Shown here piece by piece: positions 2,113 through 22,464 of a DNA stretch of 64,000 bases; the stretch's first letter is position 1; every line of letters begins with the position of its first letter. Made by a program: the position numbers and the translations under genes. The stretch comes from Candidatus Zixiibacteriota bacterium. GTDB taxonomy: Bacteria > RBG-13-66-14 > B26-G2 > WVWN01. The stretch covers positions 39,151 through 103,150 of the forward strand of contig WVWN01000078.1 in NCBI GenBank assembly GCA_011773985.1, written 5' to 3'. The notes beneath the pieces were generated by a model, which was not told the origin of the DNA, searched no databases, and saw only the letters and a program-made list of their open reading frames with translations.

Positions 2113-4116
2113 TTAGTTTTGATGTTGACTGCGCAAAGTCGCGCCGAATTTTGCCGCGAGCATTTTTATCGTCTCTTCCCGGGCGTCGTTGACCTCTTCG
2201 TCGGTCAACGTCCGGTCGTCGGCCTGGTAGCGAATCCGAACGCCCAGGCTTTTTCGCCGCGCGGGGATGCTCTCGCCGGCGAAGACGTCGAAGACGGCGA
2301 CGTCGCGTACGAGGTCGTTCGATTCGCGGATGGCCGCGACGATGTCCGCGCCGGCCTTGTCCTCGTCGAGGACCAACGCCAGGTCGCGGACGACCGAGGG
2401 GAAGCGGGAAATAGGGCGGTAGCGGCGCGCGGTCGCGGTGAGCGCGCGTAGCGGGCTTACGTCGAGTTCGGTTACGTGGGCGGCGCCGAACGGCTCGACG
2501 GCGGCTTGGCGGTAGGCACCTGTCGCCGGGCCGACGCGGAAGTTCGTCCCTTCCCATTCCGTACTCGCGCCGAGGACTCGGCCGAGCGCTTCAAGGGTGC
2601 CCTTGACGAAGAAGAAATTTGCCTCCCCGGGCCGCCGCGACCAGTGGCGGGGTTCGGCTTCGCCCGCGGCGAGGAGGCCGAGGTGGAGATGCTCGGCTAC
2701 GGTACCGCCTTTGTCCGCCGTGAAGACGTTGCCGATTTCGAAAATCAGTACCGACGGCGCGCCGAGGCGGCCGTTGCGCATCGCCACGTCGGCCAGGTTG
2801 GGCCAGAGCGCCACGCGAAGGTGCGAAAACTGGCTTACGGTCGGGTTGGCGACGGCGACGGCTTCGCAGGGGTCCAGGCCGCAGGCGGCGAGTTGCTCCG
2901 GGTTCGTAAAGGTCGGCGTGTATACCTCGGTGAAGCCGGCCGCCGTGAGGACCTCGCGCATTTTCCGCTCGAGTTCCTCGCGCGGGGCGCGGGCGGGAGG
3001 CGGGAGGCGTCCGCCGGGTAGCGTAGCTTCGACGTTATCGTAGCCGTAGGCGCGGGCGATCTCTTCGACTACGTCAATCTCGGAATTTACGTCGCGCCGA
3101 TAGGGGGGCGCGGATATGACGAGGTTTTCCATACGGTCGAGGCCGACGTCGAAGTAGAGGCGCCTGAGAAGGACGGCCATATCCTCGCCTGTTAGGCTCG
3201 TGCCCATAAGCATATTGGCGCGCGCGGGCCTTAGGACAACCGCCGGCCGCGGCCATTCGGTTTGGCCCTTGTCCGCAGGCGGGGCCAGCACCGTTCCCCC
3301 GGCGAGCTCGGCTAAGAGGGCCGCGGCCCGGTTCGCCGCCTCCAGGGTTGCGGTCGGGTCCGTGCCCCGTTCGAACCTGTACGAGGATTCGGTAGATAGG
3401 CCGTAGCGCCGCGCCGTCCGGCGAACGTTGGCCGGGTCGAAGTAGGCACTCTCGATAACGACGGCTTGGGTGGAAGAAGACACCTCGCTGTCTCGGCCGC
3501 CCATGACGCCCGCGAGCGCTACCGGCCCCTCTGCGTCGGCTATGACGAGGTCTTCCGACGATAGCGTTAGTTCCTCGTCGTTAATGAGGACGAGCTTTTC
3601 TCCCGCTCCGGCGCGCCGAATGACGAGTTTGCGCCCCCGGAGTTTGGCCAGATCGAACGCGTGGAGCGGCTGGCCCATTTCCAAGTTGACGAAGTTCGTG
3701 ATGTCGACGACGTTATTTAGTGAGCGAACGCCGACCGCCTCCAGCCGTTGGGCGAGCCATGGCAGCGACGTTCCCACGTCTAGGTTGGTTACGATTCGCG
3801 CCGAGTAACGGGGGCACAAATCCTGGTCGACGAGGTCCACTTCGACGGAAAGTTCCTTGGGTATGTTTACTTCCTTTATGTAGACGGGCGGGAGCGTGAG
3901 CGGCGCAAGCGTGAGGGAAGAGATTTCGCGCGCAAGCCCTATCATGGATAAGCAGTCGCTGCGCACCGGGACCACGTCGACGTCGAAGATTACGTCGTCG
4001 TCGACGCGCGAGAGCAATTCCACCTCGAGGCCGACCATCGTCAGTTGCTCGGCCAACCTGTCGGCGGGGACGGTTGCGGGGCAATAATCGCGGAGCCATT
4101 TTAGGCTGTATTTCAT
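2113..4116 (-). CDS. pheT: phenylalanine--tRNA ligase beta subunit (short form without the N-terminal OB-fold tRNA-binding domain)
   Basis: B1 N-terminus (MKYSLKWLRDY...MVGLEVE), B3/B4 and B5 regions, and a C-terminal anticodon-binding-like domain. 667 aa versus roughly 790 aa typical. The B1 segment runs directly into the B3-like region. Immediately downstream of pheS. Confidence 0.85.
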   Translation of the reverse strand: MKYSLKWLRDYCPATVPADRLAEQLTMVGLEVELLSRVDDDVIFDVDVVPVRSDCLSMIGLAREISSLTLAPLTLPPVYIKEVNIPKELSVEVDLVDQDLCPRYSARIVTNLDVGTSLPWLAQRLEAVGVRSLNNVVDITNFVNLEMGQPLHAFDLAKLRGRKLVIRRAGAGEKLVLINDEELTLSSEDLVIADAEGPVALAGVMGGRDSEVSSSTQAVVIESAYFDPANVRRTARRYGLSTESSYRFERGTDPTATLEAANRAAALLAELAGGTVLAPPADKGQTEWPRPAVVLRPARANMLMGTSLTGEDMAVLLRRLYFDVGLDRMENLVISAPPYRRDVNSEIDVVEEIARAYGYDNVEATLPGGRLPPPARAPREELERKMREVLTAAGFTEVYTPTFTNPEQLAACGLDPCEAVAVANPTVSQFSHLRVALWPNLADVAMRNGRLGAPSVLIFEIGNVFTADKGGTVAEHLHLGLLAAGEAEPRHWSRRPGEANFFFVKGTLEALGRVLGASTEWEGTNFRVGPATGAYRQAAVEPFGAAHVTELDVSPLRALTATARRYRPISRFPSVVRDLALVLDEDKAGADIVAAIRESNDLVRDVAVFDVFAGESIPARRKSLGVRIRYQADDRTLTDEEVNDAREETIKMLAAKFGATLRSQHQN

Positions 4117-5636: not shown

Positions 5637-7184
5637 GTGGCGCGACTTTACGAATACCAGGGCAAAGCGCTATTGCGACGGGCGGGCGTAAAGGTCCCGC
5701 GCGGGCGGCCGGCGTACTCCCCGGCCGAGGTCGCGGCCGTCGCCTACGAAATCGGCGCCCCGGTCGTGCTCAAGGCCCAGGTCTTCGTTACGGCGCGGGC
5801 CGCGGCCGGCGGCATCCAATTCGCCGATAACGCCATGGCTGCGGAGCGGGTCGCGGGCCGCGAGATGTTCGGCCGCACGATAAAGGGCCAACGTTGCGAC
5901 GTCGTCCTGGTGGAGGAGAGACTCGACATCGCGCGCGAGATGTACGTCGCGGTCGTCGTCGACAACGACGCTCGCAAACCGCTCGTCATCTTCTCTTCCG
6001 TCGGCGGCTCGGGCGTCGAAGAGATCGCCGCGGCGCACCCGGAGGCGTTGGTCAAAAGAGACGTCGAGTCGGCGCGCGGCCTGTACGGCTACGAGGCGCG
6101 CGAGCTGGCGCGGCGCGCGGGCCTTAAAGGCCGGGAGCTGGTCGGCGTCGCGGACGCGTTGACGAAACTTTGGCGGGTCGCCCGGGACGCCGAGGCACGT
6201 GCCGTGGAGATAAACCCGTTGGTAATTACGGCCGGGGGCGAGGTGGTGGCCGCGGACTGCCGTATAACGGCGGACGACTACGCCGTCTTCCGGCACCCGG
6301 AGCTGGCCGTCGCGGTCGCGCGCGAGTTCGACCGGCCGCCGACGGAGCTCGACCTCATCGCGTATAACGCCGAGAAGGACGACTACCGCGGCACGTTCTA
6401 TTTCGTGCAGCTCGAGGAAGGTTTTGGCCGCGAAGGCCGCTATATCGGCTTCCACGGCGCGGGCGGCGGCGGCTCGATGATGTCGATGGACGCGGCGCTC
6501 GCGGAAGGGTTCAATATCGCGAACTTCTGCGACACCTCCGGCAATCCGCCGGCGAGCAAGGTCTACCGCGCGGCGCGCATAATTCTCGCTCAAAAGGGCC
6601 TGGTGGGATACTTCGGCTCGGGCTCGGGCGTCGCGAGTCAGGAGCAGTTCCACTCCGCGCGCGGCCTGGTGAAGGCTTTCCGCGAAGTTTGGCTTAATGT
6701 CCCCTGCGTCGAGCGCCTGGGCGGCAACCGGGAAGAACGGGCGATTCAAATATTGACCGAATATACGAAGGACCTTCCGGCGCCGCTCGAGTGCTACGGC
6801 AAGGACACCTCGGCCCGATATTGCGCCCGGCGGCTGCGCGAGCTCGTGGACGGCTACGACTACGACGCTGCCCGCGAGAAGCCGCCAGAGACGCCGCGCG
6901 ATTCCTCCTATTCTTTTAAGACCGTTACCGGCGGTACCGTCTCCTACGATTACGCGAGGTGCGACGGTTGCCAAACCAAGGTGTGCGTTAATGAGTGCGT
7001 GCCGGGGATACTCGAGCTCGACGGCGGCCGGCCGGTCCTCAACGTCAGCGAGGAGGAGGCGGCGCGGGGGCGCTGCACCGAATGCCTGGCGTGCGAGGTC
7101 GAGTGCCACGCCCGCGGCAACGGCGGCGGCAAAATAACGCTACCCATCCCGGGTTTGGGGGAGTATTTGACTAAGACGGCGTGA
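5637..7184 (+). CDS. succinyl-CoA-synthetase-beta-like ATP-grasp subunit with a C-terminal 2x[4Fe-4S] ferredoxin domain (candidate citryl-CoA synthetase large subunit)
   Basis: N-terminal (M)ARLYEYQGKALLRRAGV and AVEINPLVIT match SucC. Ligase-CoA region GFHGAGGGGSMMSMDAALAEGFNIANFCDTSGN. An extra ~120-aa C-terminus carries CDGCQTKVCVNECVP and CTECLACEVEC cysteine clusters. GTG start. Confidence 0.7.
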   Translation: MARLYEYQGKALLRRAGVKVPRGRPAYSPAEVAAVAYEIGAPVVLKAQVFVTARAAAGGIQFADNAMAAERVAGREMFGRTIKGQRCDVVLVEERLDIAREMYVAVVVDNDARKPLVIFSSVGGSGVEEIAAAHPEALVKRDVESARGLYGYEARELARRAGLKGRELVGVADALTKLWRVARDAEARAVEINPLVITAGGEVVAADCRITADDYAVFRHPELAVAVAREFDRPPTELDLIAYNAEKDDYRGTFYFVQLEEGFGREGRYIGFHGAGGGGSMMSMDAALAEGFNIANFCDTSGNPPASKVYRAARIILAQKGLVGYFGSGSGVASQEQFHSARGLVKAFREVWLNVPCVERLGGNREERAIQILTEYTKDLPAPLECYGKDTSARYCARRLRELVDGYDYDAAREKPPETPRDSSYSFKTVTGGTVSYDYARCDGCQTKVCVNECVPGILELDGGRPVLNVSEEEAARGRCTECLACEVECHARGNGGGKITLPIPGLGEYLTKTA

Positions 7185-7185
7185 T

Positions 7186-8094
7186 ATGTCGATATTGATA
7201 AATTCCGGGGATAAAGTCATCGTCGCCGGCATCACCGGCCGCGAGGGGCGCGCGCGGACGCGCCTAATGAAGGGCTACGGCACCAACGTCGTCGCCGGCG
7301 TTTCGCCCGGCCACGGCGGCGAGGAGGTCGAGGGCGTCCCGGTCTTCGACACCGTGGGCGCCGCGGTCGAGGCGGTGGGCGAGATTTACGCGTCGGTTGT
7401 CTTCGTGCCGGGGCCCGCGGTGAAGGAGGCGGCGCTCGAGGCGTTCGACGCCGGCGTAAAGCTCGCGGTGCTCGTCCCGGACCGCGTGCCCATATGGGAC
7501 GTGCTCGCGATAGATGCCGCGGCGCGGGAGGCCGGCGCCCGATACGTCGGCCCGAACACGCTGGGGGTGTTGTCGGTCGGCGAGGCGGTACTGGGGATGG
7601 TCGGCGGGAGCGCGGAATCGGCGCGGGAATGGTTCAAACCCGGGCCGGTAGGGATATCTTCTCGCTCGGGCGGGATTACGGCGTCGCTGGCCTACTACCT
7701 CGGCCGGGCCGGCGTCGGTGCGACCACGCTCGTCCACGTCGGCGGCGACGCCGTCGTCGGCACGCCCCACCAGGACGTCGTTCGGTTATTCCAGGAGGAC
7801 GCCGATACCAAGGCCGTCGTGTTGTTCGGTGAGATAGGGAGCAGCCAGGAGGAAAAGGTGGCGGAGCTTGTCGCCGAAGGCGTAGTTACTAAGCCGGTGG
7901 TGGCGTTCATAGGCGGCAAGGCCGCGAGGGAGGGGACGCGTTTCTCGCACGCCGGCGCGATCGTCGAGGCCGGCCGCGGGACGTACGAGGGCAAAGTGAA
8001 GGCTTTGCGCGAGGCGGGCGCTGTCGTTGTAGACGATTACGATAAGGTCGCGGAACGTACGTTGGGAGTTTTAAAAGACTTGGGCGAGGTATGA
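7186..8094 (+). CDS. succinyl-CoA-synthetase-alpha-like CoA-binding subunit (candidate citryl-CoA synthetase small subunit)
   Basis: MSILINSGDKVIVAGITGREG CoA-binding N-terminus, GISSRSGGITAS, and a phosphohistidine loop FSHAGAIV. 302 aa. Starts 2 nt after the beta-like gene's stop. Confidence 0.8.
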   Translation: MSILINSGDKVIVAGITGREGRARTRLMKGYGTNVVAGVSPGHGGEEVEGVPVFDTVGAAVEAVGEIYASVVFVPGPAVKEAALEAFDAGVKLAVLVPDRVPIWDVLAIDAAAREAGARYVGPNTLGVLSVGEAVLGMVGGSAESAREWFKPGPVGISSRSGGITASLAYYLGRAGVGATTLVHVGGDAVVGTPHQDVVRLFQEDADTKAVVLFGEIGSSQEEKVAELVAEGVVTKPVVAFIGGKAAREGTRFSHAGAIVEAGRGTYEGKVKALREAGAVVVDDYDKVAERTLGVLKDLGEV

Positions 8095-9545
8095 GCGACG
8101 AAGAGCGAGGAGGCGGTTTGACCAGTAAGCCGGCGTCGCCGGCGTTCGCCAAACTACGGCCCCGTCCCGACATGCGGGCATCTGTGTGCGAGGGCCTCTT
8201 CGGCCAGATGTTCTTAAACCTCGCCGGGGCCTGGTCGGCGTTCGTCACGGCGCTGGCGTTGAGCCTGGGGGCCGGCAGCCGGTCTTTCGGCCTGATCTTC
8301 GCCGCGGGGCCGGTGGTGGCGTTTTCGCAAGCGCTGGGGCCGGTGCTGCTGCCCCTTTTCGGCGGCTCGCGGCGGCGGCTTGTCGTCGCGGCCAGCGCGG
8401 GCGCGCGCGGCATAATTTTCCTCATCCCGGCGGTAGTGCTTTGGCTCGAGCCGGATGCGGCGCTCGCCCTCTTTATCGCTTGTTTCCTGGCCTCGCAGGT
8501 TTTAACCGGCGCCATGATGAGCGTGTGGACGAGTTGGATCGGCGCCATCGTCCCGGAGCGCATCCGCGGCCGCTTTCTCGGTAAGCGGACGCAACTGATG
8601 ATGGCGCTTGGGCTCGTCGTCGCTTTCGCGGCCAGCGTTTTTAAGGACCTCTCCGTGCCGGGGCGTGAAACGGGCCTGACGGGGTTTTTTCGCCGCCTGT
8701 TCGGCATCGCTGGCGGCCTGTGGGGCGCGGGGGGAGAACGGTACGCCTACTTTATAATATTCGCCTTTGCCGGCGCCGCGGGCCTCGCATCCACTCTCCT
8801 GTTGTTGCGACAACGCGACCGGCCGGCCCCTGCCGTACGCTTTTCGCTCCGCTCGTTGGCCGAGCCGCTCCGCGACCGCCGCTTTCGTCACCTGATATAT
8901 TTCTTCGGATGGTGGTGGTTCGCGGCGTCATTCGGCGCGCCGTTTTGGCAACCGTTCTACCTCGAAGTGTTACGCATGTCCCTAACCGCGGTTCAGATCT
9001 ACAACTCGCTTTTGATAATCGCGATGGCGGCGACCGCGGCTTTGTGGGGCCGTCTGTTAGACCGCTTCGGCAACAAGCCGGTCTTCCGAGGGCTGATATT
9101 CTTGGCGACGGCGAACTCGTTCGTTTACGTTTTCATGCGGCCGGACCTTTACTGGTGGGTTTGGCTGGAGGCCGTCACGTCGGGCGCGATGTGGGGTGGG
9201 GCTATGGTCGCGACGATAAACTTTATCATCCGCCTAAGCCCGGAAGCCAAACGGGATAGCTATGTCGCCCTGTACGCCGTCGTTGCCGGCGCGTGCGGCC
9301 TAGTCGCGACCGTCGGCTCCGGTCAGTTCGTGGCGATGCTGCCGCGCTACGTCTCGCTCGCCGGGTGGCAGCTTCTGAATATGAAGGTAGCGTTCCTCAT
9401 AACCACGGCTTTTCGCCTCGTTTCGCACGTTCCTATGTATTTAGTAAAAGAACCTCGGGCGGTGCCCTTCCGTCACATGATGCGCGCGGTGGCGGCGGAC
9501 GTGCGGCTGTGGTTTTTGCGATTCCGACCCGGCCCCGGCAAATGA
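8091..9545 (+). CDS. MFS-type membrane transporter
   Basis: 484 aa with about 12 predicted hydrophobic helices. ATGA overlap with the preceding sucD-like gene suggests co-transcription. Confidence 0.55.
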   Translation: MSDEERGGGLTSKPASPAFAKLRPRPDMRASVCEGLFGQMFLNLAGAWSAFVTALALSLGAGSRSFGLIFAAGPVVAFSQALGPVLLPLFGGSRRRLVVAASAGARGIIFLIPAVVLWLEPDAALALFIACFLASQVLTGAMMSVWTSWIGAIVPERIRGRFLGKRTQLMMALGLVVAFAASVFKDLSVPGRETGLTGFFRRLFGIAGGLWGAGGERYAYFIIFAFAGAAGLASTLLLLRQRDRPAPAVRFSLRSLAEPLRDRRFRHLIYFFGWWWFAASFGAPFWQPFYLEVLRMSLTAVQIYNSLLIIAMAATAALWGRLLDRFGNKPVFRGLIFLATANSFVYVFMRPDLYWWVWLEAVTSGAMWGGAMVATINFIIRLSPEAKRDSYVALYAVVAGACGLVATVGSGQFVAMLPRYVSLAGWQLLNMKVAFLITTAFRLVSHVPMYLVKEPRAVPFRHMMRAVAADVRLWFLRFRPGPGK

Positions 9546-9549
9546 TGTT

Positions 9550-9969
9550 ATGAAAGAGGGAGAACGGAAGATAAAGGTCCTCTTCGTTTGCACCGGCAAC
9601 TCCTGCCGCTCGCAGATGGCCGAGGGTTGGGCGAACCACTTGGGCGCGGGCCTCGTCGAGGCATACTCGGCGGGCGTATACCCCGTCGGCGTCGCGCCCC
9701 TTACGGTGAAGGTCATGGCCGAAGCCGGCGTGGATATTTCGCATCAGCGCGCCAAGGCCGTCGACGAGTTCCTCGGCGAAGAGTTTGACTACGTAATTAC
9801 ACTATGCGATAATGTACGGGAGTTGTGTCCGTACTTCCCGGATGCGGCCAAACGTTTCCACTGGCCTGTAAAAGACGCGTTCGGCCTGGACCTCGACGCG
9901 TACCGCCGCGCCCGCGACGAAATCCGCGCCCGGGTGGAGGCCTTTTTAAACGAAATCAACGGCCCGTAA
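9550..9969 (+). CDS. arsC: arsenate reductase (thioredoxin-coupled, LMW-PTP family) / low-molecular-weight phosphotyrosine phosphatase
   Basis: VLFVCTGNSCRSQMAEG CX5R P-loop plus a downstream TLCDNVRELCPYFP cysteine pair typical of Bacillus-type ArsC. 139 aa. Confidence 0.65.
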   Translation: MKEGERKIKVLFVCTGNSCRSQMAEGWANHLGAGLVEAYSAGVYPVGVAPLTVKVMAEAGVDISHQRAKAVDEFLGEEFDYVITLCDNVRELCPYFPDAAKRFHWPVKDAFGLDLDAYRRARDEIRARVEAFLNEINGP

Positions 9970-9991
9970 GTAACCGCCGGGCAAGAGGTGG

Positions 9992-10339
9992 ATGACGGCC
10001 GAGGCGCCCAAGATAACGCGGCAGCGCGAGCTCGAGGCCGAAATCAACTTCCTTATTCCGCGCCTCGTGATGTTGGGGGCTAAGTTCGTCGTCGTGCACG
10101 GCGCCGTCGCCCGGGGGACGGCTCGAGCCAATTCGAAGTTAAATCTGATCGTCGTCGCCGCGAGCGATCTCCCCTTCAAAGAGCGCCAGAAGTATTTCCG
10201 CGAAAAGCTCAAGGGCCGCGAGCCCCTCGAGATAGTGGTATACACGCTCCCGGAGTTCAACCGCGCCAAGGAAGAGAGCACCCTCGTTAAGCACGCGATG
10301 CGCGAAGGCCGCGTCGTCTACTCGCCCGAGCGGGGGTGA
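9992..10339 (+). CDS. minimal nucleotidyltransferase-fold protein with a degenerate catalytic motif
   Basis: HGAVARGTARANSKLNLIVV aligns to the Pol-beta NTase G[SA]xxRG...hDhDh signature, but both catalytic Asp are replaced (S-K-L-N-L). No HEPN partner is adjacent. Confidence 0.4.
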   Translation: MTAEAPKITRQRELEAEINFLIPRLVMLGAKFVVVHGAVARGTARANSKLNLIVVAASDLPFKERQKYFREKLKGREPLEIVVYTLPEFNRAKEESTLVKHAMREGRVVYSPERG

Positions 10340-10374: not shown

Positions 10375-11151
10375 ATGGCCGATAAGTGGTTCACAAGCAT
10401 AACGGACGTTGGGCCCAACAAAATACGCCTCAGCGGCTACCCCATCGGAGAGCTGATGGGCCGCAAGAGCTTCGCCGAGGTCGTGTGGCTCACGCTGCGC
10501 GGCGAGCTGCCGTCCGAGGCCGAGGGGAAGCTCCTCGATGCGGTCTTGGTGTCGTCGGTGGATCACGGCGTAACGCCGCCGTCCACGTTGGCCGCACGTA
10601 CGGCGGCCTCCACGGGCGCGCCGGTGAACGCGGCGCTCGCCTCGGGCGTCCTCGCCGTCAACCGCTTCCACGGCGGCGCGGTGGAGGGGTGTATGGCGGC
10701 TCTCGCCGAGGCAGTGGCCCATATGAAGGAGAAAGACGTCTCGCGTGAGGAGGCTGCGGCGGCGACAATCGGACGTTACGGCGAAGGTGGGCGTCGCGTA
10801 GAGGGTTTCGGCCACCGCCTCCACGACGACGACCCGCGGGCGGCGCGGCTATTCGCGTTGGCGGAGGAGCTGGGCCTAGCGGCCGAAGGTATCCCGATGG
10901 CCCGGGCTTTCGAAACCGCGCTTCGGAACCTTGCGGGTAAGGGGCTGCCATTGAACGTCGACGGCGCCATCGGCGCGTGCCTTTTCGACTTGGGTTTCGA
11001 GCCGCATACTGCCAACGCGTTTTTCATTCTGGCGCGAATGCCCGGGTGGCTTGCGCACGTCGTCGAGGAGCAGACGCGCGAGCGGCCCATGCGGCGCATT
11101 GAGCCGTCGGCGTGGGCGTACGACGGCCCGGGCGAGAGACATTTGACTTAG
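10375..11151 (+). CDS. citryl-CoA lyase-like protein (stand-alone C-terminal half of citrate synthase)
   Basis: 258 aa that align to the C-terminal catalytic half of citrate synthase: HGGAVEGCMAAL, GFGHRLHDDDPRAARLF, LPLNVDGAIGACLFDLGF...ARMPGWLAHVVEE. It lacks the N-terminal ~170 residues, as in Hydrogenobacter Ccl (~259 aa). Confidence 0.65.
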   Translation: MADKWFTSITDVGPNKIRLSGYPIGELMGRKSFAEVVWLTLRGELPSEAEGKLLDAVLVSSVDHGVTPPSTLAARTAASTGAPVNAALASGVLAVNRFHGGAVEGCMAALAEAVAHMKEKDVSREEAAAATIGRYGEGGRRVEGFGHRLHDDDPRAARLFALAEELGLAAEGIPMARAFETALRNLAGKGLPLNVDGAIGACLFDLGFEPHTANAFFILARMPGWLAHVVEEQTRERPMRRIEPSAWAYDGPGERHLT

Positions 11152-11164
11152 CTCGAGGTTCAAT

Positions 11165-11698
11165 ATGGAAGATAGAATTAAAGAGTTGTTGCCCGAGTTG
11201 GCAGATATCGAGGAGGGGGCGCTACGCGATAAAGTAGTCGCGGTGTACAAGGCAGCGCTCGAGCGCGGCGGCTGGCAACCGGAAGATATGGCACGCCTCC
11301 CGTCCACGCTTTTAATAGATCCGCCGCCCGCCACGTACGTCGAGCACACGCGCGCCGTCACGCGGTGTGCCGTCGCCGCGGCGGAGGCGATGGCGGCAGT
11401 ATACGGTTCCCGGGTGAATATAAACCGCGACCACCTGGTCGCCGCGGGCCTTCTTCACGACGTCGGCAAGCTCTTGGAGTATCGCGAGGAGGGCGGCAAA
11501 TTCGTCAAGTCGGAGCTGGGCCGGATGCTCCGGCACCCGTTGTCTGGTGCCGCGCTCTGCTACGGGTTCGGCCTTCCCCCGGAAGTAACCCACGTCGTCG
11601 CGACGCACGCCCGCGAGGGCGAGGGCGCCCGGGCGACGCCGGAGGCGATAATAATTCACCACGCCGACTTCATCAACTTTGAGCCGTTTAAATTGTGA
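11165..11698 (+). CDS. HD-domain phosphohydrolase
   Basis: HTRAVTRCAV...AGLLHDVGK conserved H...HD metal-binding residues. 177 aa. Confidence 0.6.
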   Translation: MEDRIKELLPELADIEEGALRDKVVAVYKAALERGGWQPEDMARLPSTLLIDPPPATYVEHTRAVTRCAVAAAEAMAAVYGSRVNINRDHLVAAGLLHDVGKLLEYREEGGKFVKSELGRMLRHPLSGAALCYGFGLPPEVTHVVATHAREGEGARATPEAIIIHHADFINFEPFKL

Positions 11699-12963
11699 AG
11701 AGTGGCAACGCGCAAACGTTCGCCGAAAAGATATTTTCGCGTAAGACGGGCCGGCCGGTGGCCGCCGGTGAAATAGTCGTGCTCGAGCCCGACCGTCTCC
11801 TCTCCCACGACAACGCCGCGGCCATCGCGAAGACCTTCGCGGAATTCGGCCTGAAACGGATTGTGGACCCGGCTAAGGCCGTCATCGTCTTGGACCACTG
11901 CGTCCCGGCGGCCTCGGAAAAATATGCCAAGAACCATCTAGAGATCCGTGAGTTTGTGGAAGAGAACGATATCGAGAACTTCTTCGACGTCGGCGAGGGG
12001 GTGTGCCACCAGGTCTTCGCAGAACAGGGGTTCGCGCTGCCGGGCGAACTTATTCTGGGCGCCGACAGCCACACGACGTCGTACGGCGCTTTCGGTGCGT
12101 TCGCCGCGGGCATAGGTCGGACCGAGATGGCGGCGCTCTACGCTACCGGTAAATTATGGCTTATGTGCCCGGCGTCGCTAAGGATTGAGGTAGCGGGCCA
12201 GTTCGGCGCGGACGTTTACCCTAAAGATTTGATTTTATACATAATAGGCGACCAGGGCGCCGACGGCGCGCTGTACAAGTCGGTGGAGTTCGCCGGGCCG
12301 ACGGTGGCGGCGGCGTCGCTGTCGGGGCGGATGACGCTCTGCAATATGGCCGCGGAGATAGGCGCCAAGAACGCGTACGCCGCCCCGGACGAAAAGACGC
12401 GGGCCTTCCTCGACGGCCGCGCGCGTCGTGAGTACGACGAGGTCTTCCCGGACGACGGCGCCGCGTACGAGCGAACGCTCTCGTACGACGTCGCCGGCCT
12501 CGAGCCCCAAGTAGCGGCCCCCCACCGCGTAGACAACGTCGTCCACGTAACGGAGTTGGTGGGTACGCGCGTGGACCAGGTCGTCGTCGGGACCTGCACC
12601 AACGGCCGCGTCGACGATTTAGTGGTGGGGGCGAATATCCTGCGGAACCGGCAGGTGGCACCGGGCGTGCGCGTCCTCGTCTTTCCGGCGAGCCGGGCGG
12701 TTTACCTCGAGGCCCTGGGGATCGGCGCGCTGGCGACGTTGGCCGAGGCGGGTTGCGTAATTATGAACCCGGGTTGCGGGCCGTGCCTCGGCGCCCACGA
12801 GGGAATCCTGGCCGCGGGCGAGGTTTGCCTCTCGACCGCGAACCGCAACTTCCGCGGCCGCATGGGCTCGACGGAAGCCGAGATTTATTTATGCTCGCCG
12901 GCGACCGCGGCGGCTTCGGCTTTATGCGGAAGGATTACCGACCCCCGGACGGTGAGGGCGTGA
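11695..12963 (+). CDS. aconitase-family large subunit (3-isopropylmalate dehydratase / homoaconitase LeuC-like, 420-aa type)
   Basis: ILGADSHTTSYGAFGAFAAGIG, VVGTCTNGRVDD and NPGCGPCLGAHEG Fe-S cysteine ligands. 422 aa. Confidence 0.8.
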   Translation: MKSGNAQTFAEKIFSRKTGRPVAAGEIVVLEPDRLLSHDNAAAIAKTFAEFGLKRIVDPAKAVIVLDHCVPAASEKYAKNHLEIREFVEENDIENFFDVGEGVCHQVFAEQGFALPGELILGADSHTTSYGAFGAFAAGIGRTEMAALYATGKLWLMCPASLRIEVAGQFGADVYPKDLILYIIGDQGADGALYKSVEFAGPTVAAASLSGRMTLCNMAAEIGAKNAYAAPDEKTRAFLDGRARREYDEVFPDDGAAYERTLSYDVAGLEPQVAAPHRVDNVVHVTELVGTRVDQVVVGTCTNGRVDDLVVGANILRNRQVAPGVRVLVFPASRAVYLEALGIGALATLAEAGCVIMNPGCGPCLGAHEGILAAGEVCLSTANRNFRGRMGSTEAEIYLCSPATAAASALCGRITDPRTVRA

Positions 12964-12967
12964 GCGT

Positions 12968-13096
12968 ATGGAGTCGTTAGTGTTTATAATCGTAATCATC
13001 TTGTTGGTCCTGGCTATTTTGCTCGTCGTCGCGCTCGCCGCCATAATGCTGGCGACGTGGCTATCGTCGCGGGGTAAGCGAGATGATAAGAGGTAA
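12968..13096 (+). CDS. tiny hydrophobic ORF between the aconitase-family subunit genes (possibly spurious)
   Basis: ATG at 12968 to TAA at 13094-13096, 42 codons: MESLVFIIVIILLVLAILLVVALAAIMLATWLSSRGKRDDKR. One predicted transmembrane helix plus a basic tail. It exactly fills the LeuC-LeuD-like gap and overlaps the LeuD-like start. Confidence 0.2.
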   Translation: MESLVFIIVIILLVLAILLVVALAAIMLATWLSSRGKRDDKR

Positions 13097-13577
13097 GGTT
13101 TGGAAGTACGGCGACGACGTCAACACCGACGTCATCTTCCCGGGGCGTTACACGTATACGATAACGGACCCGGGCGAAATCGCCTCCCACGCTCTCGAGG
13201 ACTTGGACCCGACGTTCGCGAAGAACGTTAGGCCAGGGGATATCGTCGTAGCCGGCAAAAACTTCGGCTGCGGCTCGAGCCGCGAGCAGGCCGCGCTGTG
13301 CCTGAAGTACGCGGGCGTGGCCGCGGTGGTCGCGGCATCGTTCGCGCGCATCTTCTTCCGCAACGCCATCAACGGCGGCCTGCCGACCGTAACCGCGCCC
13401 GAAGCCATAGCACGTATAAACGCCGGCGACGAGATAAGCATCGATTTCGAGGCGGGCGAATTGACGGCGGCGGACGGCTCGAGTTACGAGTTCGCGCGGC
13501 TACCGGCGGAGGTTGTCGGCATTCTCGAGGCGGGTGGCCTGGTGCCGTGGGTCAAAAAGGAGTTGGGAGCGAAATGA
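13083..13577 (+). CDS. aconitase-family small subunit (LeuD-like)
   Basis: MIRGKVWKYGDDVNTDVIFPGRY and GKNFGCGSSREQAA swivel-domain motifs. 164 aa. Confidence 0.8.
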   Translation: MIRGKVWKYGDDVNTDVIFPGRYTYTITDPGEIASHALEDLDPTFAKNVRPGDIVVAGKNFGCGSSREQAALCLKYAGVAAVVAASFARIFFRNAINGGLPTVTAPEAIARINAGDEISIDFEAGELTAADGSSYEFARLPAEVVGILEAGGLVPWVKKELGAK

Positions 13578-15014: not shown

Positions 15015-15815
15015 TTAAGCGTGCGCGTCAACGGCAGCTTCACCGCGTACGGTTACGATAACGTCCTCGAAAGGTATGTCCTTGCCGGACGCCTTGAGCG
15101 CGTCTTTCGCCACCTGCACTAAGCCGAAGCAACAGGGCACTTCCATATGTAAAACCGTGACTTTGCGTACGTCGTTCGTACGTAGGATCGCCGCTAGCTT
15201 GTCGCGGTATAACGCGGCGTCGTCGAATTTGGGACAACCGATGACCACAGCTTTGCCGCGGAGGAAGTCGGGGTGGAAGGCGGCGTAGGCCAAAGGCGCG
15301 CAATCGGCGGCGATCAACAACTCGGCGTCGGCGAAGTACGGGGCGTTGGGGCTTGCGAGGTATAGCTTAACGGGCCACTGGCGGAGTTCCGATTTCAACT
15401 TCCCGTCGAAGGTTGCCTCGGCCTCGACGCATTCTTCGTCGTCCCCCGCCCTAAAATCCATAGTCCGCGCGCCCGGGCAGCTGAGGGTGTGGCTGCCGGC
15501 GCCATGGCTTGCGGCCGGCGTTCGCTCGGCGGCGTGCCCGTGGCGGTGCACGCCCCCTTCACGGCCGAGTTCTTTCAGGTGTTCTTCCACCGCGCCGGCG
15601 TCGAACTCTTCCGCGGAGCGCTCCTCGATGGTTATGGCGTCTTGCGGGCACTCCCCCAGGCAGGCGCCCAAGCCGTCGCAATAAGTTTCGCTTACAAGGC
15701 GCGCCTTGCCGTCGACGATTCGAATGGCCCCTTCGGCGCACGACGGGACGCACAAGCCACAGCCGTCGCACAGTCCTTCGTCGATCTTAACGATTTTGCG
15801 CGTAACCTTAGCCAT
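15015..15815 (-). CDS. 4Fe-4S dicluster ferredoxin-domain protein with a Cys-rich C-terminal domain
   Basis: N-terminal CDGCGLCVPSC and CDGLGACLGECP cluster motifs. C-terminal ADCAPLAYAAF...VIGCPKFDD...MEVPCCFG. Downstream of crp/fnr on the same strand. Confidence 0.55.
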   Translation of the reverse strand: MAKVTRKIVKIDEGLCDGCGLCVPSCAEGAIRIVDGKARLVSETYCDGLGACLGECPQDAITIEERSAEEFDAGAVEEHLKELGREGGVHRHGHAAERTPAASHGAGSHTLSCPGARTMDFRAGDDEECVEAEATFDGKLKSELRQWPVKLYLASPNAPYFADAELLIAADCAPLAYAAFHPDFLRGKAVVIGCPKFDDAALYRDKLAAILRTNDVRKVTVLHMEVPCCFGLVQVAKDALKASGKDIPFEDVIVTVRGEAAVDAHA

Positions 15816-15934: not shown

Positions 15935-16627
15935 CTAGTCGTCTTGGCTACCGGCTATAAGGCGGAGCGAGGGTTTGTCCAAGATAATTAGCCGCTGGCC
16001 CTCGGATGCGACTAGGCCCGCGTCGGCGAAGCGACGCAGCGCGCGGCTCAGCGTCTCGGGGATGGTCCCCAACGCCGCGGCGAGCGACGTTTTGGTCACG
16101 TCCAAAGCGACGTATTCGCCTCCTTCCGCGTCGGCCCGCGCGTGTTCCAGAAGGTAGGAGGCGAGCCGCGCCGGCACGTCTTTAAGGGTAAGCTTCTCGA
16201 GGACCGCGCTAATCTGGTTAAGACGTACCGACAGGGCGGCTACAATGTTCAGCGCCAAGTTCGGTTCGTTTTTTACGAGCGCGACGAACTCGCGGCGCGG
16301 CACCTCGACCGCGGCGGCGTCGTCGAGGGCCTGCGCGGTGGCGGGGTACGGGACGCCCGCCAGCGCCGCGGCCTCGCCGACCAGGTCCCCTTCCCTCATG
16401 ATTTTTATAATTAACTCGCGGCCGTCGATCGATTCTTTGAAGACCTTAACCTGCCCCGACGCGATGACGTAGAAAGCCGCGGCGTCGTCGCCCTCGCGGA
16501 AAAGCGCCTCTCCCTTCTCGAGCTCGCGGAAGACGCAGCGTTCGGCGACGCGGCCCACGTCGGCGGAGGCGAAATCTTTGAAGAGCGGCGACGCACGCAA
16601 TGCGGCGATCATGGCGGCTTCGGCCAT
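15935..16627 (-). CDS. Crp/Fnr family transcriptional regulator
   Basis: cNMP-binding beta-roll (FREGDDAAAFYVIASGQVKVF) plus a C-terminal HTH (TKTSLAAALGTIPETLSRALRRF). 230 aa. Confidence 0.8.
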   Translation of the reverse strand: MAEAAMIAALRASPLFKDFASADVGRVAERCVFRELEKGEALFREGDDAAAFYVIASGQVKVFKESIDGRELIIKIMREGDLVGEAAALAGVPYPATAQALDDAAAVEVPRREFVALVKNEPNLALNIVAALSVRLNQISAVLEKLTLKDVPARLASYLLEHARADAEGGEYVALDVTKTSLAAALGTIPETLSRALRRFADAGLVASEGQRLIILDKPSLRLIAGSQDD

Positions 16628-16723
16628 ATCGATAACCTCGCCGGATTTGAAAATTATTGAGAACCGGCCTATTTTAGTTTAATATATAATTATAATTTAA
16701 GGCAAGTCGCGAAGCGAGGTCCT

Positions 16724-17842
16724 ATAAACAAATATCGCATAGCGTGGCTGCCGGGCGACGGCATAGGCCGCGACGTTACAGAGGGGGCGCGCTTAGTCCT
16801 GGAGCGCCTCGCGCTCGACGCCGAATACGTCCCCGGCGACGTCGGTTGGGAGTTCTGGTGCCGGGAGGGCAACCCGCTGCCCGAGCGCACGAAGGACCTT
16901 ATGCGCAGGACCGATTGCGCGCTCTTCGGCGCCATCACCTCCAAACCCAAGGACGAGGCCGCACGCGAGCTCACGCCCGAGCTCCAGGGCAAGGGTTTCG
17001 TCTATTACTCGCCCATCGTCCGCCTGCGGCAAGAGTTTGACCTTTACGTAAATATGCGGCCGTGCAAGGCTTACGCCGGCAACCCCCTCAACTACCGCGA
17101 CGACGTCGACCTCGTCGTCTTCCGCGAGAACACCGAGGGCCTTTACGCGGGCGTGGAGTGGTCTCCCGTGCCGGCGGCGGTGTACGATTGCCTAATGGCC
17201 AACCACAAGAAGATGGCCGCGTTCGCGGGCGTCCCCCTTGGCGAGCTCGCCATCTCGACGCGCATAATGACGAAGCGCGCGTGCGAGCGTATAGTCCGCG
17301 CCGCGTTCGAGTACGCGGGAAAGAAGGGGCGTAAGTCCGTAACGGTGGTGGAGAAGCCTAACGTACTGCGCGAGACCGGCGGCCTTATGGTCCGCACCGC
17401 CCGCGAGGTCGCCCAGGACTACCCGGGCGTCGAGCTGTGGGAGACCAATATAGACGCGATGGCGATGTGGCTTGTCAAGAACCCGCAGGACTACGACATC
17501 CTGGTGGCGGAGAACATGTTCGGCGACATCATCTCGGACGAGGCGGCGCAGCTCGTCGGCGGCCTGGGCTTCGCTTGCGCCGGTAACATCGGCGACGACT
17601 ACGCCGTCTTCGAGCCCACGCACGGCTCGGCGCCCAAGTACGCGGGCCAATACAAAGTCAACCCGACGGCGATGCTGCTCGCAACGAGGATGATGCTCGA
17701 GTACCTGGGCGAGGAGGATAAGGCTGCGGCTTTGGAAAACGCCGTCGCCGCCGTCATCGCGGAAGGGAAGGTCCGCACGTACGATATGGGCGGCAAAAAC
17801 TCCACGCTCGAGATGGCGGAGGCAGTCGCCGCGCGGGTTTGA
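16724..17842 (+). CDS. icd: isocitrate dehydrogenase (NADP), prokaryotic homodimeric type; 5' end uncertain
   Basis: IAWLPGDGIGRDV N-terminus, LVVFRENTEGLYAGVEW and HGSAPKYAGQYKVNPTAMLLATRMMLEYLG match Icd rather than LeuB. There is no ATG/GTG/TTG in frame between the upstream stop (16658-16660) and the conserved N-terminus at 16739. SD-like GAGGT at 16715-16719. The first in-frame ATG (16901) lies inside the Rossmann domain. Confidence 0.75.
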   Translation: MNKYRIAWLPGDGIGRDVTEGARLVLERLALDAEYVPGDVGWEFWCREGNPLPERTKDLMRRTDCALFGAITSKPKDEAARELTPELQGKGFVYYSPIVRLRQEFDLYVNMRPCKAYAGNPLNYRDDVDLVVFRENTEGLYAGVEWSPVPAAVYDCLMANHKKMAAFAGVPLGELAISTRIMTKRACERIVRAAFEYAGKKGRKSVTVVEKPNVLRETGGLMVRTAREVAQDYPGVELWETNIDAMAMWLVKNPQDYDILVAENMFGDIISDEAAQLVGGLGFACAGNIGDDYAVFEPTHGSAPKYAGQYKVNPTAMLLATRMMLEYLGEEDKAAALENAVAAVIAEGKVRTYDMGGKNSTLEMAEAVAARV

Positions 17843-22166: not shown

Positions 22167-22464
22167 TCCTGGCCTCCTGTTAACACCGCAATAATTATCC
22201 GAGTTAAATTTACCAAGCGGCGCTGTCAAGGGTTTGCTTTGTTAATTAAGCCGCCAAGGGCGCTGGAGTTGTAGTCGCTATCGAATCCTCGGGCCGAGGC
22301 CGAGAACAACGATTTTGAGGTCGGCCGAGTACTTACGGGAAAAGCGCCACGGCCGGAGGGCTTATCGCCGCCGCTATGGCCGATCGGGGGACGTGAGTTG
22401 TCGATGTTTTAAATGTGAAGGGGGGCTGGCTCCGAGCCGGCTTTCGACGGGAGGAAATGGGGTA

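Follow-up and report, generated by a model that had tools for sequence, protein, structure and literature searches.

ATP-citrate lyase genes and citryl-CoA synthetase/citryl-CoA lyase (CCS/CCL) genes serve to mark the reductive TCA cycle; the enzymes they encode are viewed as simple, cofactor-free and non-redox. The locus described here raises the question of why a subunit of the succinyl-CoA synthetase (SCS) beta type should end in a cysteine-rich, ferredoxin-like tail: is the fusion real, to which enzyme does the subunit belong, and what might the tail do? The gene lies in a 64,000-nt stretch of DNA (“the window”) from Candidatus Zixiibacteriota bacterium (assembly GCA_011773985.1, contig WVWN01000078.1, positions 39,151 to 103,150 of the forward strand). 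An earlier note, made from the sequence alone, had described the product as a “SucC-like” protein with an unusual two-cluster ferredoxin tail. The gene and its parts are as follows, in window coordinates.

5637–7184, plus strand: whole gene, a 515-aa large (beta-type) subunit with a C-terminal Fe-S module (single ORF; colinear homologues; AF2 model)
5643–6227, plus strand: ATP-grasp nucleotide-binding domain, residues 3–197 (Pfam ATP-grasp_2, 2.4e-52; Foldseek 3ufx)
6330–6392, plus strand: insertion DRPPTELD...DDYRG, residues 232–252 (common to CcsA and AclB, absent from SucC)
6441–6812, plus strand: C-terminal Rossmann-type (acid-binding) domain with a GNPPASKVY motif (weak Citrate_bind match)
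6609–6665, plus strand: family-specific loop YFGSGSGVASQEQFHSARG, residues 325–343, at the position of the succinate/citrate-binding loop
6849–6908, plus strand: variable Pro/charge-rich linker, residues 405–424 (alignments A1 and A2 show no conserved column here)
6909–7181, plus strand: ferredoxin-like, 2x[4Fe-4S]-type domain, residues 425–515 (sub-threshold Fer4_9 matches, AF2, Foldseek, 8ys5_D)
6960–6998, plus strand: Cys motif 1, C442-x2-C445-x4-C450-x3-C454-x-P (invariant in A1 and A2; 80/80 loci)
7074–7106, plus strand: Cys motif 2, C480-x-E-C483-L-x-C486-E-x-x-C490 (invariant in A1 and A2; 80/80 loci)

The gene encodes a real, single fused protein, i.e., an SCS-beta-type ATP-grasp subunit joined to a two-motif ferredoxin-like domain. 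The ORF at 5637–7184 (plus strand) has a GTG start, 515 codons and no internal stops, and its N-terminus, MARLYEYQGK, agrees with the homologue consensus MARLHEYQGK in alignment A1. Homologues are 496–607 aa long and colinear over 95–100% of the query in 120/120 cases among the matches listed, and the eight tail cysteines are kept in all 120 of these. At each of 80 independent genome loci (80/80), the full eight-cysteine pattern occurs in an uninterrupted protein. The AF2 model of the whole protein has a mean pLDDT of 91.8 and a pTM of 0.81. The earlier note had asked whether the cysteine-rich tail might belong to a separate downstream gene through an unnoticed frameshift or stop; we reject this reading because the ORF is uninterrupted, the homologues are colinear and the same protein is found intact at all 80 loci. 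The cysteines stand exactly in the two motifs that the note had quoted (442/445/450/454 and 480/483/486/490), and its canonical lengths of ~390–430 aa agree with the solved structures (SucC 385–397 aa, AclB 398 aa, CcsA 429 aa). The note had suggested a search for long SucC-family proteins; at least 120 homologues were found, and relatives occur in at least 547 species genomes.

Both four-cysteine motifs of the tail are of the CxxCxxCxxxC(P) type, with motif 1 having four residues before its third cysteine. Alignments A1 and A2 comprise 67 and 32 sequences, respectively, and with invariance in about 200 sequences a chance cysteine pattern can be dismissed. Comparison with Fer4 families, also suggested earlier, gave a divided answer: 31 of 32 family tails match Pfam Fer4_9 at E up to 1 (best 3.5e-5), but every score lies under the gathering threshold, and the tail of the window protein reaches none of the Fer4 gathering thresholds in Pfam (top Fer4_9, 21.2 bits versus 27). 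The AF2 model of the tail (pLDDT 86.8) runs strand-helix-strand-strand-helix-strand, the order of the ferredoxin core. The leading Foldseek matches of the tail are mostly 2x[4Fe-4S]-type domains, all under the significance threshold, and the best sequence match of the tail profile in the PDB is the delta subunit of 2-oxoglutarate:acceptor oxidoreductase (OGOR; 8ys5_D, E 0.018). We have good confidence that the C-terminal ~90 residues, which probably adopt a bacterial-type ferredoxin fold, bind clusters, most likely two of the [4Fe-4S] type. The original description of a ferredoxin-type tail with two cysteine motifs on an SCS-beta-type subunit is borne out by eight invariant cysteines, likeness to Fer4_9 and a ferredoxin-like strand/helix order.

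Residues 1 to ~404 form an SCS-beta-type body, the best Foldseek match of which is the SCS beta structure 3ufx (1.4e-37). Against the NCBIfam SucC model NF001913, residues 3–377 align to profile positions 2–365 of 388. “SucC-like” describes this fold better than it does the protein's family: the SucC cut-offs are missed (NF001913, 242.1 bits versus 370; TIGR01016, 234.6 versus 375.55, whole-protein score), a Pfam search gave a match to ATP-grasp_2 but none to Ligase_CoA (PF00549) in the beta subunit, CcsA/AclB indels are present, and a citryl-CoA lyase (CCL) gene lies downstream in 56 of 65 loci. We aligned the body with reference sequences, namely CcsA of Hydrogenobacter thermophilus, AclB of C. 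limicola and the SucC proteins of Thermus and E. coli; those of CcsA, AclB and Thermus SucC were transcribed from HMMER output. In this alignment, the RPPTE..D[YH]RG insertion and the GNPPAxKxY motif are common to the window protein, CcsA and AclB only, and not to SucC; the more specific form GNPPA[SE]K[VM]Y is common to the window protein and CcsA. The match of residues 274–392 to Pfam Citrate_bind (PF16114; 1.9e-5, 24.7 bits) falls under the gathering score of 26.8.

The loop at residues 325–343 is invariant across the 67 sequences of A1 and is unlike its counterparts in the alignment, i.e., SucC FGGI(V/T)R, CcsA GGTANNTRIDV and AclB GGAIANFTDV. The SucC succinate loop, (N)IFGGI(V/T)R, is not present in the window protein, where YFGSGSGVASQEQFH stands in its place; nor is the AclB citrate loop, GGxIANFT, with GSGVASQEQF there instead. 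The AF2 pLDDT is <50 at loop residues 331–334. By PDB search, the body matches Thermus SCS beta (1e-59) better than CcsA (8e-37), and it does not group with the characterised H. thermophilus CcsA (8e-37 to 6hxq_B, versus 4e-86 for the CcsA-like protein P0160). A rough, unbootstrapped NJ tree, with a hand-entered E. coli SucC outgroup sequence, places the family as sister to the bona fide CcsA clade and apart from the canonical SucC clade. By its scores, indels and gene context, the body fits the CcsA/AclB super-clade (citryl-CoA synthetase/ATP-citrate lyase beta) better than it fits SucC. We set plain SucC aside as the main reading on its sub-cut-off score, the lack of a Ligase_CoA match in Pfam, the separate clade and the CcsA/AclB indels.

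The genes that follow in the window include the following.

7186–8094, plus strand: SucD-like alpha subunit of 302 aa; SHAGAIV is its phosphohistidine motif (Pfam CoA_binding and Ligase_CoA)
10375–11151, plus strand: citryl-CoA lyase, 258 aa, short and citrate-synthase-like (NCBIfam NF004866, NF004869; PDB 6hxp_A)
11165–11698, plus strand: HD/HDIG-domain protein, 177 aa (Pfam HD, 3.4e-13; TIGR00277 HDIG)
11695–12963, plus strand: aconitase/homoaconitase-type dehydratase, large subunit (NCBIfam NF001614, 551.6 bits)
13083–13577, plus strand: aconitase/homoaconitase-type dehydratase, small subunit (TIGR02087, 203 bits)
16901–17842, plus strand: Iso_dh-family (isocitrate/homoisocitrate-type) dehydrogenase (Pfam Iso_dh, 1.3e-80)

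The stop codon of the beta gene (TGA, 7182–7184) is separated by a single base from the ATG of the SucD-like gene at 7186, and the stop codon of the SucD-like gene overlaps the ATG of an MFS transporter gene as ATGA (8091–8094). Both neighbors had been proposed as coupled partners. The SucD-like gene is indeed tightly coupled and comes after beta in 73 of 75 loci, but the MFS gene is a lineage-specific insertion, found in only 3 of 62 loci, all of them close relatives of the window. The MFS transporter, an ArsC-like phosphatase and a nucleotidyltransferase were dropped as parts of the system. The best PDB match of the alpha subunit is the SCS alpha 2yv2 (2e-75), with CcsB (6hxq_A) at 6e-48. 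The lyase exceeds both NCBIfam cut-offs (NF004866, 246.7 versus 245; NF004869, 239.9 versus 212), and its best PDB match is the H. thermophilus CCL, 6hxp_A (4.8e-48). As is characteristic of CcsA, genes for a CcsB-like alpha subunit and for a CCL accompany that of the beta subunit (window genes 7186–8094 and 10375–11151); the alpha-CCL fusion that partners AclB is not found in the window, where alpha and CCL are separate genes.

Further members of the cluster recur as well: the HD protein in 35 of 57 loci, the large subunit of the aconitase-type dehydratase in 25 of 50, and the Iso_dh gene in 25 of 42, with PrpD also frequent (13/39). The order beta, alpha, CCL, HD, Acn, Iso_dh is found in >10 phylum-level groups. 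The Pfam match of the Iso_dh protein begins at profile position 62 and an in-frame WLPGDGIG lies upstream; the true start is probably upstream of 16901, near 16700. A survey of genome loci with about 10 kb of flank per locus found no ferredoxin-dependent enzyme or oxidoreductase conserved in the cluster.

Relatives of the family vary the module in several ways. In P0124 and P0128, Cys1–3 of motif 1 and Cys4 of motif 2 are lost, while Cys4 of motif 1 and Cys1–3 of motif 2 are kept; the four that are kept are the exact ligand set of one cluster in the ferredoxin fold. These two proteins point, indirectly, to cross-wise ligation, in which each cluster would take three ligands (Cys1–3) from one motif and its fourth (Cys4) from the second motif. 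The Planctomycetota form retains the domain with six of eight cysteines gone, and is encoded next to an alpha-CCL fusion gene; in the Planctomycetota relative P0127, alpha and CCL are fused as in AclA (L087, 566 aa). In related clusters, the Fe-S module is a stand-alone gene of 92–111 aa (hhalign probabilities 99.8–99.9%), and the lyase in these clusters is of the HpcH type, the HMGL type or a CCL. Such split forms extend to Bathyarchaeia. Searching for further stand-alone modules with a 92-aa Bathyarchaeia protein retrieved no more than 3 proteins, as a word-index search has little sensitivity with so short a query. A natural series of predicted cluster loss (two, one, none) is already available for study.

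Which enzyme do these genes encode? We consider it highly probable that the gene product is the large ATP-grasp (beta-type) subunit of a citryl-CoA-synthetase/ATP-citrate-lyase-like enzyme. Its partners, as judged from protein families and gene order, would be the SucD-like alpha subunit, in which the phosphohistidine is kept, and the citryl-CoA lyase encoded downstream. Together, beta, alpha and CCL would turn citrate, CoA and ATP reversibly into acetyl-CoA, oxaloacetate, ADP and Pi. With the aconitase-type dehydratase and Iso_dh, this reaction would form part of a citrate/isocitrate/2-oxoglutarate module. The overall citrate-cleavage reaction is close to equilibrium. The enzyme could run in either direction, as the citrate-cleaving step of the reductive TCA cycle or as an ATP-conserving citrate synthase. 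Features that speak for a CCS/ACL-like enzyme are the insertion and motif found only in CcsA and AclB, the CCL context, the recurrent gene order and the alpha-CCL fusion in Planctomycetota.

Two other identities have to be weighed. The protein could simply be the organism's SCS beta subunit, its extra domain being decorative or specific to the lineage, and the CCL and aconitase genes reflecting general clustering of TCA genes; this would fit the best PDB and NCBIfam matches, which by name are SCS beta, and an alpha subunit nearest to SCS alpha (2e-75). We regard it as very unlikely, given a score of 242 bits where the SucC equivalog model requires 370, no Ligase_CoA match, CcsA/AclB-specific indels, a replaced FGGI succinate loop, a clade separate from canonical SucC in the NJ tree, the alpha-CCL fusion among relatives, and split relatives that are paired with acyl-CoA lyases (HpcH, HMGL) rather than TCA genes. 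As for the substrate, it is solely the gene context that points to citrate, because the acid-binding loop GSGVASQEQFH resembles neither that of CcsA nor that of AclB. Were the substrate a citrate analogue (homocitrate, 2-methylcitrate, citramalate or similar), the cluster would serve 2-oxoacid chain elongation or degradation, and not be a TCA segment. The lyase argues otherwise, passing two NCBIfam citryl-CoA lyase cut-offs and having the H. thermophilus CCL as its nearest characterised relative, and nothing was found that matched homocitrate or methylcitrate enzymes at equivalog level. An analogue is quite unlikely in our judgment, even with a dehydratase and a dehydrogenase that score best, below cut-off, against HacA/AksF (homoaconitase/homoisocitrate dehydrogenase) models, PrpD in 13 of 39 loci, the divergent acid-binding loop, and the other lyase types beside split relatives.

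What, then, is the tail for? One answer is that it is a working electron-transfer or redox-gating module, whose two clusters would pass electrons to and from the ferredoxin pool or a docked oxidoreductase, for instance PFOR or OGOR. Redox state would then switch, or be coupled to, the cleavage or formation of citrate, and so decide which way a bidirectional TCA cycle runs. Synthetase/lyase chemistry requires no electrons, no oxidoreductase or ferredoxin-dependent enzyme is conserved beside the genes, and otherwise identical clusters carry a Cys-poor (Planctomycetota) or one-cluster (P0124, P0128) domain. We therefore think this answer possible, if somewhat unlikely; in its favor are the eight cysteines invariant in fused forms, the ferredoxin (delta) subunit of OGOR as the closest solved sequence, leading Foldseek neighbors that are mostly electron-transfer ferredoxin domains, hosts that, going by record titles, are apparently mostly uncultured lineages of sediment or anoxic settings, and the placing of the enzyme at the step that decides TCA-cycle direction. 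A broader form of the idea, in which the di-cluster ferredoxin module, whether fused or separately encoded, gives a whole clade of ADP-forming acyl-CoA synthetases from bacteria and Bathyarchaeia a redox/O2 switch or wires them to a ferredoxin-dependent partner such as PFOR or OGOR, seems to us doubtful. If such a switch were real, the citrate-cleaving or citrate-forming step of the citrate-specific branch would follow how reduced the ferredoxin pool is, and many uncultured anaerobes would possess a built-in selector of oxidative versus reductive TCA flux.

A catalytic role of the tail, including one as catalytic electron carrier, appears unlikely. We propose instead, tentatively and with slightly less than even weight, that the tail forms an integral third part of the synthetase, serving its structure or assembly, because the chemistry is non-redox and the module also occurs as a separate gene and in one-cluster and Cys-less variants. 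Ferredoxin-like domains are found in non-redox proteins such as ABCE1 and archaeal RNA polymerase subunit D, which offer analogues for such a role. Through the clusters, Fe-S supply, O2 or redox state could govern assembly, stability or activity. The whole reading we prefer, i.e., a CCS/ACL-like citrate enzyme with the Fe-S module as an integral, structural/regulatory and non-catalytic third component, has in our estimate an even chance of being right. Observations that favor an integral, non-catalytic module are the stand-alone genes, the loss of cysteines in Planctomycetota, and the lack of a conserved ferredoxin-dependent enzyme in the cluster. Strict conservation of both predicted clusters in all of about 200 fused sequences speaks against a mere scaffold.

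The family is found in Chloroflexota, Acidobacteriota/Aminicenantes, Calditrichota, Marinimicrobia, Zixibacteria, KSB1, Planctomycetota and others. The fusion is therefore “unusual”, as first described, only by comparison with characterised enzymes, since such a tail is known from none of the characterised SucC, CcsA and AclB proteins; among uncultured bacteria, it is widespread. These genes are labelled “succinyl-CoA synthetase beta”, “acetate--CoA ligase family” or “ATP-grasp protein” because the module is unrecognised by Pfam and there is no family-specific NCBIfam model, and they are probably misassigned in metabolic reconstructions of many MAGs. Our data indicate a large unrecognised branch of the ATP-citrate lyase/CCS enzyme family, with a dedicated Fe-S module (predicted to hold two clusters, with most cysteines lost in the Planctomycetota form) across branches of the family. 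Should activity be gated by the clusters, redox, oxygen or iron status would act directly on carbon flux at the citrate node. The family would also be a clear added case of a nucleotide-dependent, non-redox enzyme that has recruited a ferredoxin domain. The searchable literature, with subscription-only papers outside its coverage, yielded no description of an Fe-S tail on such enzymes. Within the same literature, only Thiel et al. 2017 (PMC5459899) was found to note related gene sets: in the section consulted, Planctomycetes sets of “SCS alpha/beta + citrate synthase” are already read as citrate-cleaving, putative CCS/CCL, with no mention there of a ferredoxin-like tail on the CCS/CCL-like genes.

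Of the known systems, H. thermophilus CcsA/CcsB with CCL (6HXQ, 6HXP) resembles the window in having a two-subunit, SCS-like synthetase beside a short, citrate-synthase-like lyase, and CcsA shares the RPPTE..D[YH]RG insertion and GNPPAxKxY with the window protein. Unlike the window protein, CcsA (429 aa) has no Cys-rich tail. The two are 26% identical (Foldseek) and match at 8e-37, compared with 4e-86 for true CcsA-like proteins; the window family is a sister clade with a different acid-binding loop, and its cluster adds HD, aconitase-type and Iso_dh genes to the H. thermophilus arrangement. For AclB/AclA (Chlorobium limicola 6HXJ, counting with it the “type II ACL” that has been proposed and the Planctomycetes genes of Thiel et al.), the predicted overall reaction is the same, and the fusion of alpha and CCL in AclA is mirrored by the Planctomycetota relative P0127. 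AclB (398 aa), however, has no Fe-S domain, and in the window alpha and CCL are separate and the Citrate_bind match is sub-threshold. SucC (Thermus aquaticus 3UFX, E. coli 2SCU) has the same ATP-grasp and Rossmann-type fold (target-normalised TM-score 0.88–0.89), and SCS likewise carries its phosphohistidine on the partner alpha subunit. The window protein differs from SucC in its sub-cut-off score, extra insertions, acid loop and additional 110-aa linker and Fe-S tail, and its context of CCL and aconitase genes is unlike the classical sucCD setting.

The tail itself has its best sequence and fold neighbors in domains of the type seen in 2-oxoacid:ferredoxin oxidoreductase delta (8YS5_D), clostridial ferredoxin (1FDN) and RNA polymerase subunit D (2WAQ_D), with which it has two Cys motifs and a ferredoxin-like strand/helix order in common. 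Archaeal RNA polymerase subunit D parallels the window family in a further respect: some lineages retain the domain yet have lost cluster ligands. Unlike known ferredoxin domains, the tail has CxxCx4CxxxC spacing in motif 1, an extra N-terminal strand (YSFxTVTG), an extra inter-motif helix and a conserved C-terminal LPIPGLxEY, and its partner, whether in the same polypeptide or encoded by a neighboring gene, is an ADP-forming acyl-CoA synthetase.

The fused beta–ferredoxin (beta-Fd) form of the gene is widespread, conserved and, in the literature searched, previously undescribed. In the window, it is a single ORF of 515 aa (5637–7184, +) with a GTG start, and its cysteines at residues 442, 445, 450 and 454 and at 480, 483, 486 and 490 form the two motifs quoted in the earlier note (442–454 and 480–490). 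The best 120 database homologues (496–607 aa, 55–92% identity) are colinear with 95–100% of the query and all have both motifs, and an uninterrupted protein with the pattern CxxCx4CxxxC...CxxCxxCxxxC is encoded at 80 of 80 independent genome loci. These homologues and intact loci rule out a frameshift or mis-joined gene, the alternative named in the earlier note, and the single-gene fusion stands. In a genome-collection scan, at least 547 species genomes encoded a relative. The best 80 loci are nearly all from MAGs, and include Anaerolineae/Chloroflexota, Aminicenantes/Acidobacteriota, Calditrichia, Marinimicrobia, Zixibacteria, KSB1, Gemmatimonadota, Hydrothermota, Sumerlaeota, Coatesbacteria and others. 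Among the matches listed, the window's closest relatives are from an unclassified MAG (92%) and Zixibacteria (82%). In the full-text literature searched, no paper was found that describes subunits of citryl-CoA synthetase (CCS), ATP-citrate lyase (ACL) or succinyl-CoA synthetase (SCS) with an Fe-S or ferredoxin domain. Pfam gives no above-threshold recognition of the tail, no family-specific NCBIfam model scores the fused protein above its cut-off, and source annotations of homologues read “succinyl-CoA synthetase beta”, “acetate--CoA ligase family” or “ATP-grasp domain-containing”.

A search of the tail against Fer4 families, as the earlier note suggested, gives a divided answer: the window tail alone has sub-threshold matches (Fer4_9, 21.2 bits vs 27), but among 32 diverse family tails Fer4_9 is matched by 31, Fer4_7 by 27 and Fer4_6 by 24. 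The best match of the tail profile among PDB sequences (E = 0.018) is 8ys5_D, the ferredoxin (delta) subunit of 2-oxoglutarate:acceptor oxidoreductase, whose aligned motif 1 differs from that of the tail solely by a two-residue insertion. An AlphaFold2 model of residues 405–515 alone (pLDDT 86.8) has the strand-helix-strand-strand-helix-strand order of the ferredoxin core, with an extra N-terminal strand, inter-motif helix and C-terminal helix; its top Foldseek match, below the significance threshold, is archaeal RNAP subunit D. Two relatives, P0124 and P0128, are the most telling evidence on the nature of the tail. In both, motif 1 has lost precisely Cys1–3 and motif 2 precisely Cys4, with the other four cysteines intact. 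The 2x[4Fe-4S] ferredoxin fold binds each cluster through Cys1–3 of one motif plus the other motif's Cys4, so exactly one cluster's ligand set has been lost, a pattern that fits canonical cluster binding by the tail domain and would be hard to explain otherwise.

The earlier note's description of the body as SucC-like holds for its fold; by sequence, the body is better assigned to the CcsA/AclB super-clade than to SucC. Pfam identifies ATP-grasp_2 at residues 3–197 (2.4e-52), and the NCBIfam SucC model aligns residues 3–377 with profile positions 2–365 of 388. In the AlphaFold2 model of the fused protein (mean pLDDT 91.8, pTM 0.81, tail blocks 92–96), the first ~400 residues superpose on SCS beta subunits; the best structure match of the body is Thermus SCS beta (3ufx; E = 1.4e-37, target-normalised TM 0.89), with Hydrogenobacter-type CcsA (H. 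thermophilus, 6hxq_B) at 6.6e-31 and ATP-citrate lyases at ~1e-20. However, the SucC model gives 242 bits, short of its curated 370-bit cut-off, and Pfam finds no Ligase_CoA match, with a sub-threshold Citrate_bind there instead. By sequence, the body is not a canonical SucC. When aligned with CcsA of H. thermophilus, AclB of C. limicola and SucC of Thermus (these three PDB sequences transcribed from HMMER printouts) and of E. coli, the fused protein shows an insertion, RPPTE..D[YH]RG, and a motif, GNPPA[SE]K[VM]Y, that it has in common with CcsA and AclB and that SucC lacks. At the position of the succinate/citrate-binding loop the family has its own GSGSGVASQEQFHSARG, unlike FGGIxR in SucC, GGTANNTRIDV in CcsA or GGAIANFTDV in AclB. 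A rough neighbour-joining tree without support values (relatives drawn from 1.84 billion cluster representatives, with E. coli SucC as outgroup) places the fused family in a super-clade apart from canonical SucC that adjoins a clade with bona fide CcsA-like proteins; P0160, a member of the latter, matches 6hxq_B at 4e-86. Two positions of the body do not vary among tail-bearing proteins but differ in CcsA, AclB and SucC: Cys208, which directly follows the conserved AADxK Asp and is Ala or Gly elsewhere, and His273 (FHGAGGGGS). The split-module relatives P0136 and P0138 have both residues as well.

The fused gene's TGA (7182–7184) is followed one base later by the ATG of the SucD-like (alpha subunit) gene, whose stop codon shares the sequence ATGA (8091–8094) with the start codon of an MFS gene. 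Gene calls and Pfam for the best 80 loci, with only loci having sufficient DNA as denominators, gave the following.

Genes downstream of the fused gene (loci)
SucD-like alpha subunit, 73/75
short citrate-synthase-like gene (citryl-CoA lyase, CCL), 56/65
HD-domain gene, 35/57
aconitase/homoaconitase-type large subunit, 25/50
Iso_dh dehydrogenase, 25/42
PrpD, 13/39

Of the two genes that the earlier note called coupled, the sucD-like one thus recurs across loci; the MFS gene is present in 3 of 62. Between the sucD-like gene and CCL, the window has an insertion of MFS, ArsC/LMW-phosphatase-like and small nucleotidyltransferase genes (8091–10339, +) that is otherwise confined to its closest relatives (L007–L010, 79–92% identity), and these genes were for that reason rejected as parts of the system; in other phyla, CCL lies directly 3' of the sucD-like gene. 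The window lyase (10375–11151) exceeds two NCBIfam citryl-CoA lyase cut-offs, and among solved structures it is closest to H. thermophilus CCL, a characterised enzyme (4.8e-48; citrate synthases, ~1e-20). The window alpha subunit keeps the phosphohistidine motif SHAGAIV. A Planctomycetota relative has alpha and CCL joined in a single AclA-like gene of 566 aa, with the cluster otherwise the same; this is independent evidence for joint action of the proteins as an ATP-citrate-lyase-type enzyme. Thiel et al. 2017 (PMC5459899) had already taken gene sets of this kind in Planctomycetes (“SCS alpha/beta + citrate synthase”) to be CCS/CCL-like, placing them between Aquificae CCS/CCL and “type II ACL”.

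An HD/HDIG-domain protein of ~177 aa (11165–11698, +) is encoded between the citryl-CoA lyase and aconitase-type genes, its stop overlapping the start of the aconitase large subunit. It has an equivalent position in L003, L005, L015, L087, L088 and other loci, and is absent from split-module clusters with HpcH or HMGL lyases.

Of the five unfused relatives (403–424 aa, same super-clade) whose gene neighbourhoods were inspected, four are accompanied by a small gene of its own that shows clear homology to the tail. At the fifth, L093 (Acidoferrales; Iso_dh, beta, alpha, CCL), there is no tail-like gene within the neighbourhood inspected.

Gene order at loci with a stand-alone module
L089: beta, 92-aa ORF, alpha, HpcH-type lyase, PrpD
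L091 (Bathyarchaeia): beta, 92-aa ORF with eight Cys, alpha, HpcH-type lyase
L092: beta, 108-aa ORF with eight Cys, alpha, HMGL-type lyase
L094: CCL-like, 111-aa ORF with eight Cys, HMGL/HCS-like, alpha, beta

Stand-alone modules match the tail profile with hhalign probabilities of 99.8–99.9% (E = 7e-30 and 1e-32). Since these genes sit beside the synthetase while the lyase type varies, the Fe-S module travels with the synthetase, and its function is tied to the alpha/beta synthetase rather than to CCL or downstream enzymes. This comparative evidence points to the module as an autonomous, recurrent third component of the synthetase. Conversely, P0127 (a 51-member Planctomycetota cluster), P0151 and P0174 keep the domain (hhalign 95.4%, E = 1.8e-8) with six to eight cysteines lost; hence the domain can be retained without clusters.

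In the L089 module (3239–3517), Asp replaces the first Cys of motif 2 (RRDNECLACEFHC), an indication that the second cluster may be of a 3-Cys+Asp or [3Fe-4S] kind. L090 (6748–9159) encodes P0239, a deep-branching fused beta-Fd of 504 aa with eight Cys, beside radical-SAM/SPASM, PqqD and peptidase genes; the alpha-like protein that follows it has no GHAGA-type phosphohistidine motif that we could see. Here the same beta+Fd scaffold may have diverged towards a use in peptide modification.

Other genes of the window include Fe-S or anaerobic-lifestyle indicators and a second aconitase pair (candidate LeuCD or homoaconitase), which mirrors the “second AcnL/AcnS” after Iso_dh in many related loci.

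Further features of the window
15015–15815 (-), 266-aa protein with N-terminal di-cluster ferredoxin domain
15935–16627 (-), CRP/FNR-family regulator adjoining it, within the extended citrate cluster
19230–20477 (+), second aconitase-family large subunit
20408–21013 (+), probable aconitase-family small subunit following it
21024–22229 (-), saccharopine-dehydrogenase-family gene adjoining that pair
24001–25428 and 41133–42563, two radical-SAM genes
53555–54727 (-), DUF362+Fer4 protein

The Iso_dh gene (16640–17842, +) is called from ATG 16901 (313 aa), with a Pfam match from profile position 62. Its N-terminal motif (…YRIAWLPGDGIGRDV…) lies upstream in the same frame, where there is no ATG, GTG or TTG between the preceding stop (~16658) and 16901, suggesting a rare start codon or a sequence error. 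GatD (22465–23907, -) and GatE (26305–28254, -), the archaeal-type Glu-tRNA(Gln) amidotransferase, exceed NCBIfam equivalog cut-offs (510 vs 324, 520 vs 456), in the same window as a bacterial-type PheT (TIGR00472, 542 vs 403). GatDE is generally seen as an archaeal hallmark.

Domain architecture, conservation, gene partnership and membership pattern are direct observations. From family knowledge, the alpha/beta enzyme would activate a carboxylate via acyl-phosphate and phosphohistidine chemistry and, with CCL, would interconvert citrate, CoA and ATP with acetyl-CoA, oxaloacetate, ADP and Pi. Values for CCS plus CCL tabulated in PMC13147460 sum to about -8 kJ/mol, close to equilibrium, so the enzymes could cleave citrate in the rTCA cycle or, equally, carry out ATP-conserving citrate synthesis feeding aconitase and Iso_dh towards 2-oxoglutarate. 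Because the acid-binding loop is novel, it is gene context alone that points to citrate as the acid substrate. The acid could instead be a citrate analogue, with the cluster serving a citrate-analogue pathway, but we consider this improbable.

The predicted synthetase/lyase chemistry requires no electrons, and the neighbourhoods of fused-gene loci contain no conserved ferredoxin-dependent enzyme. Given this, and given the split, one-cluster and Cys-less forms, the most economical reading of the tail is a structural or assembly role. Fe-S dependence could then let O2, redox state or Fe-S supply regulate the enzyme; comparable proteins are ABCE1 and subunit D of archaeal RNAP. An electron-transfer or redox-gating module, akin to that of the earlier note, is a possibility we doubt but take seriously: the ligands of both clusters show no variation across about 200 fused sequences and the tail resembles OFOR delta subunits, which argues against a purely passive scaffold.
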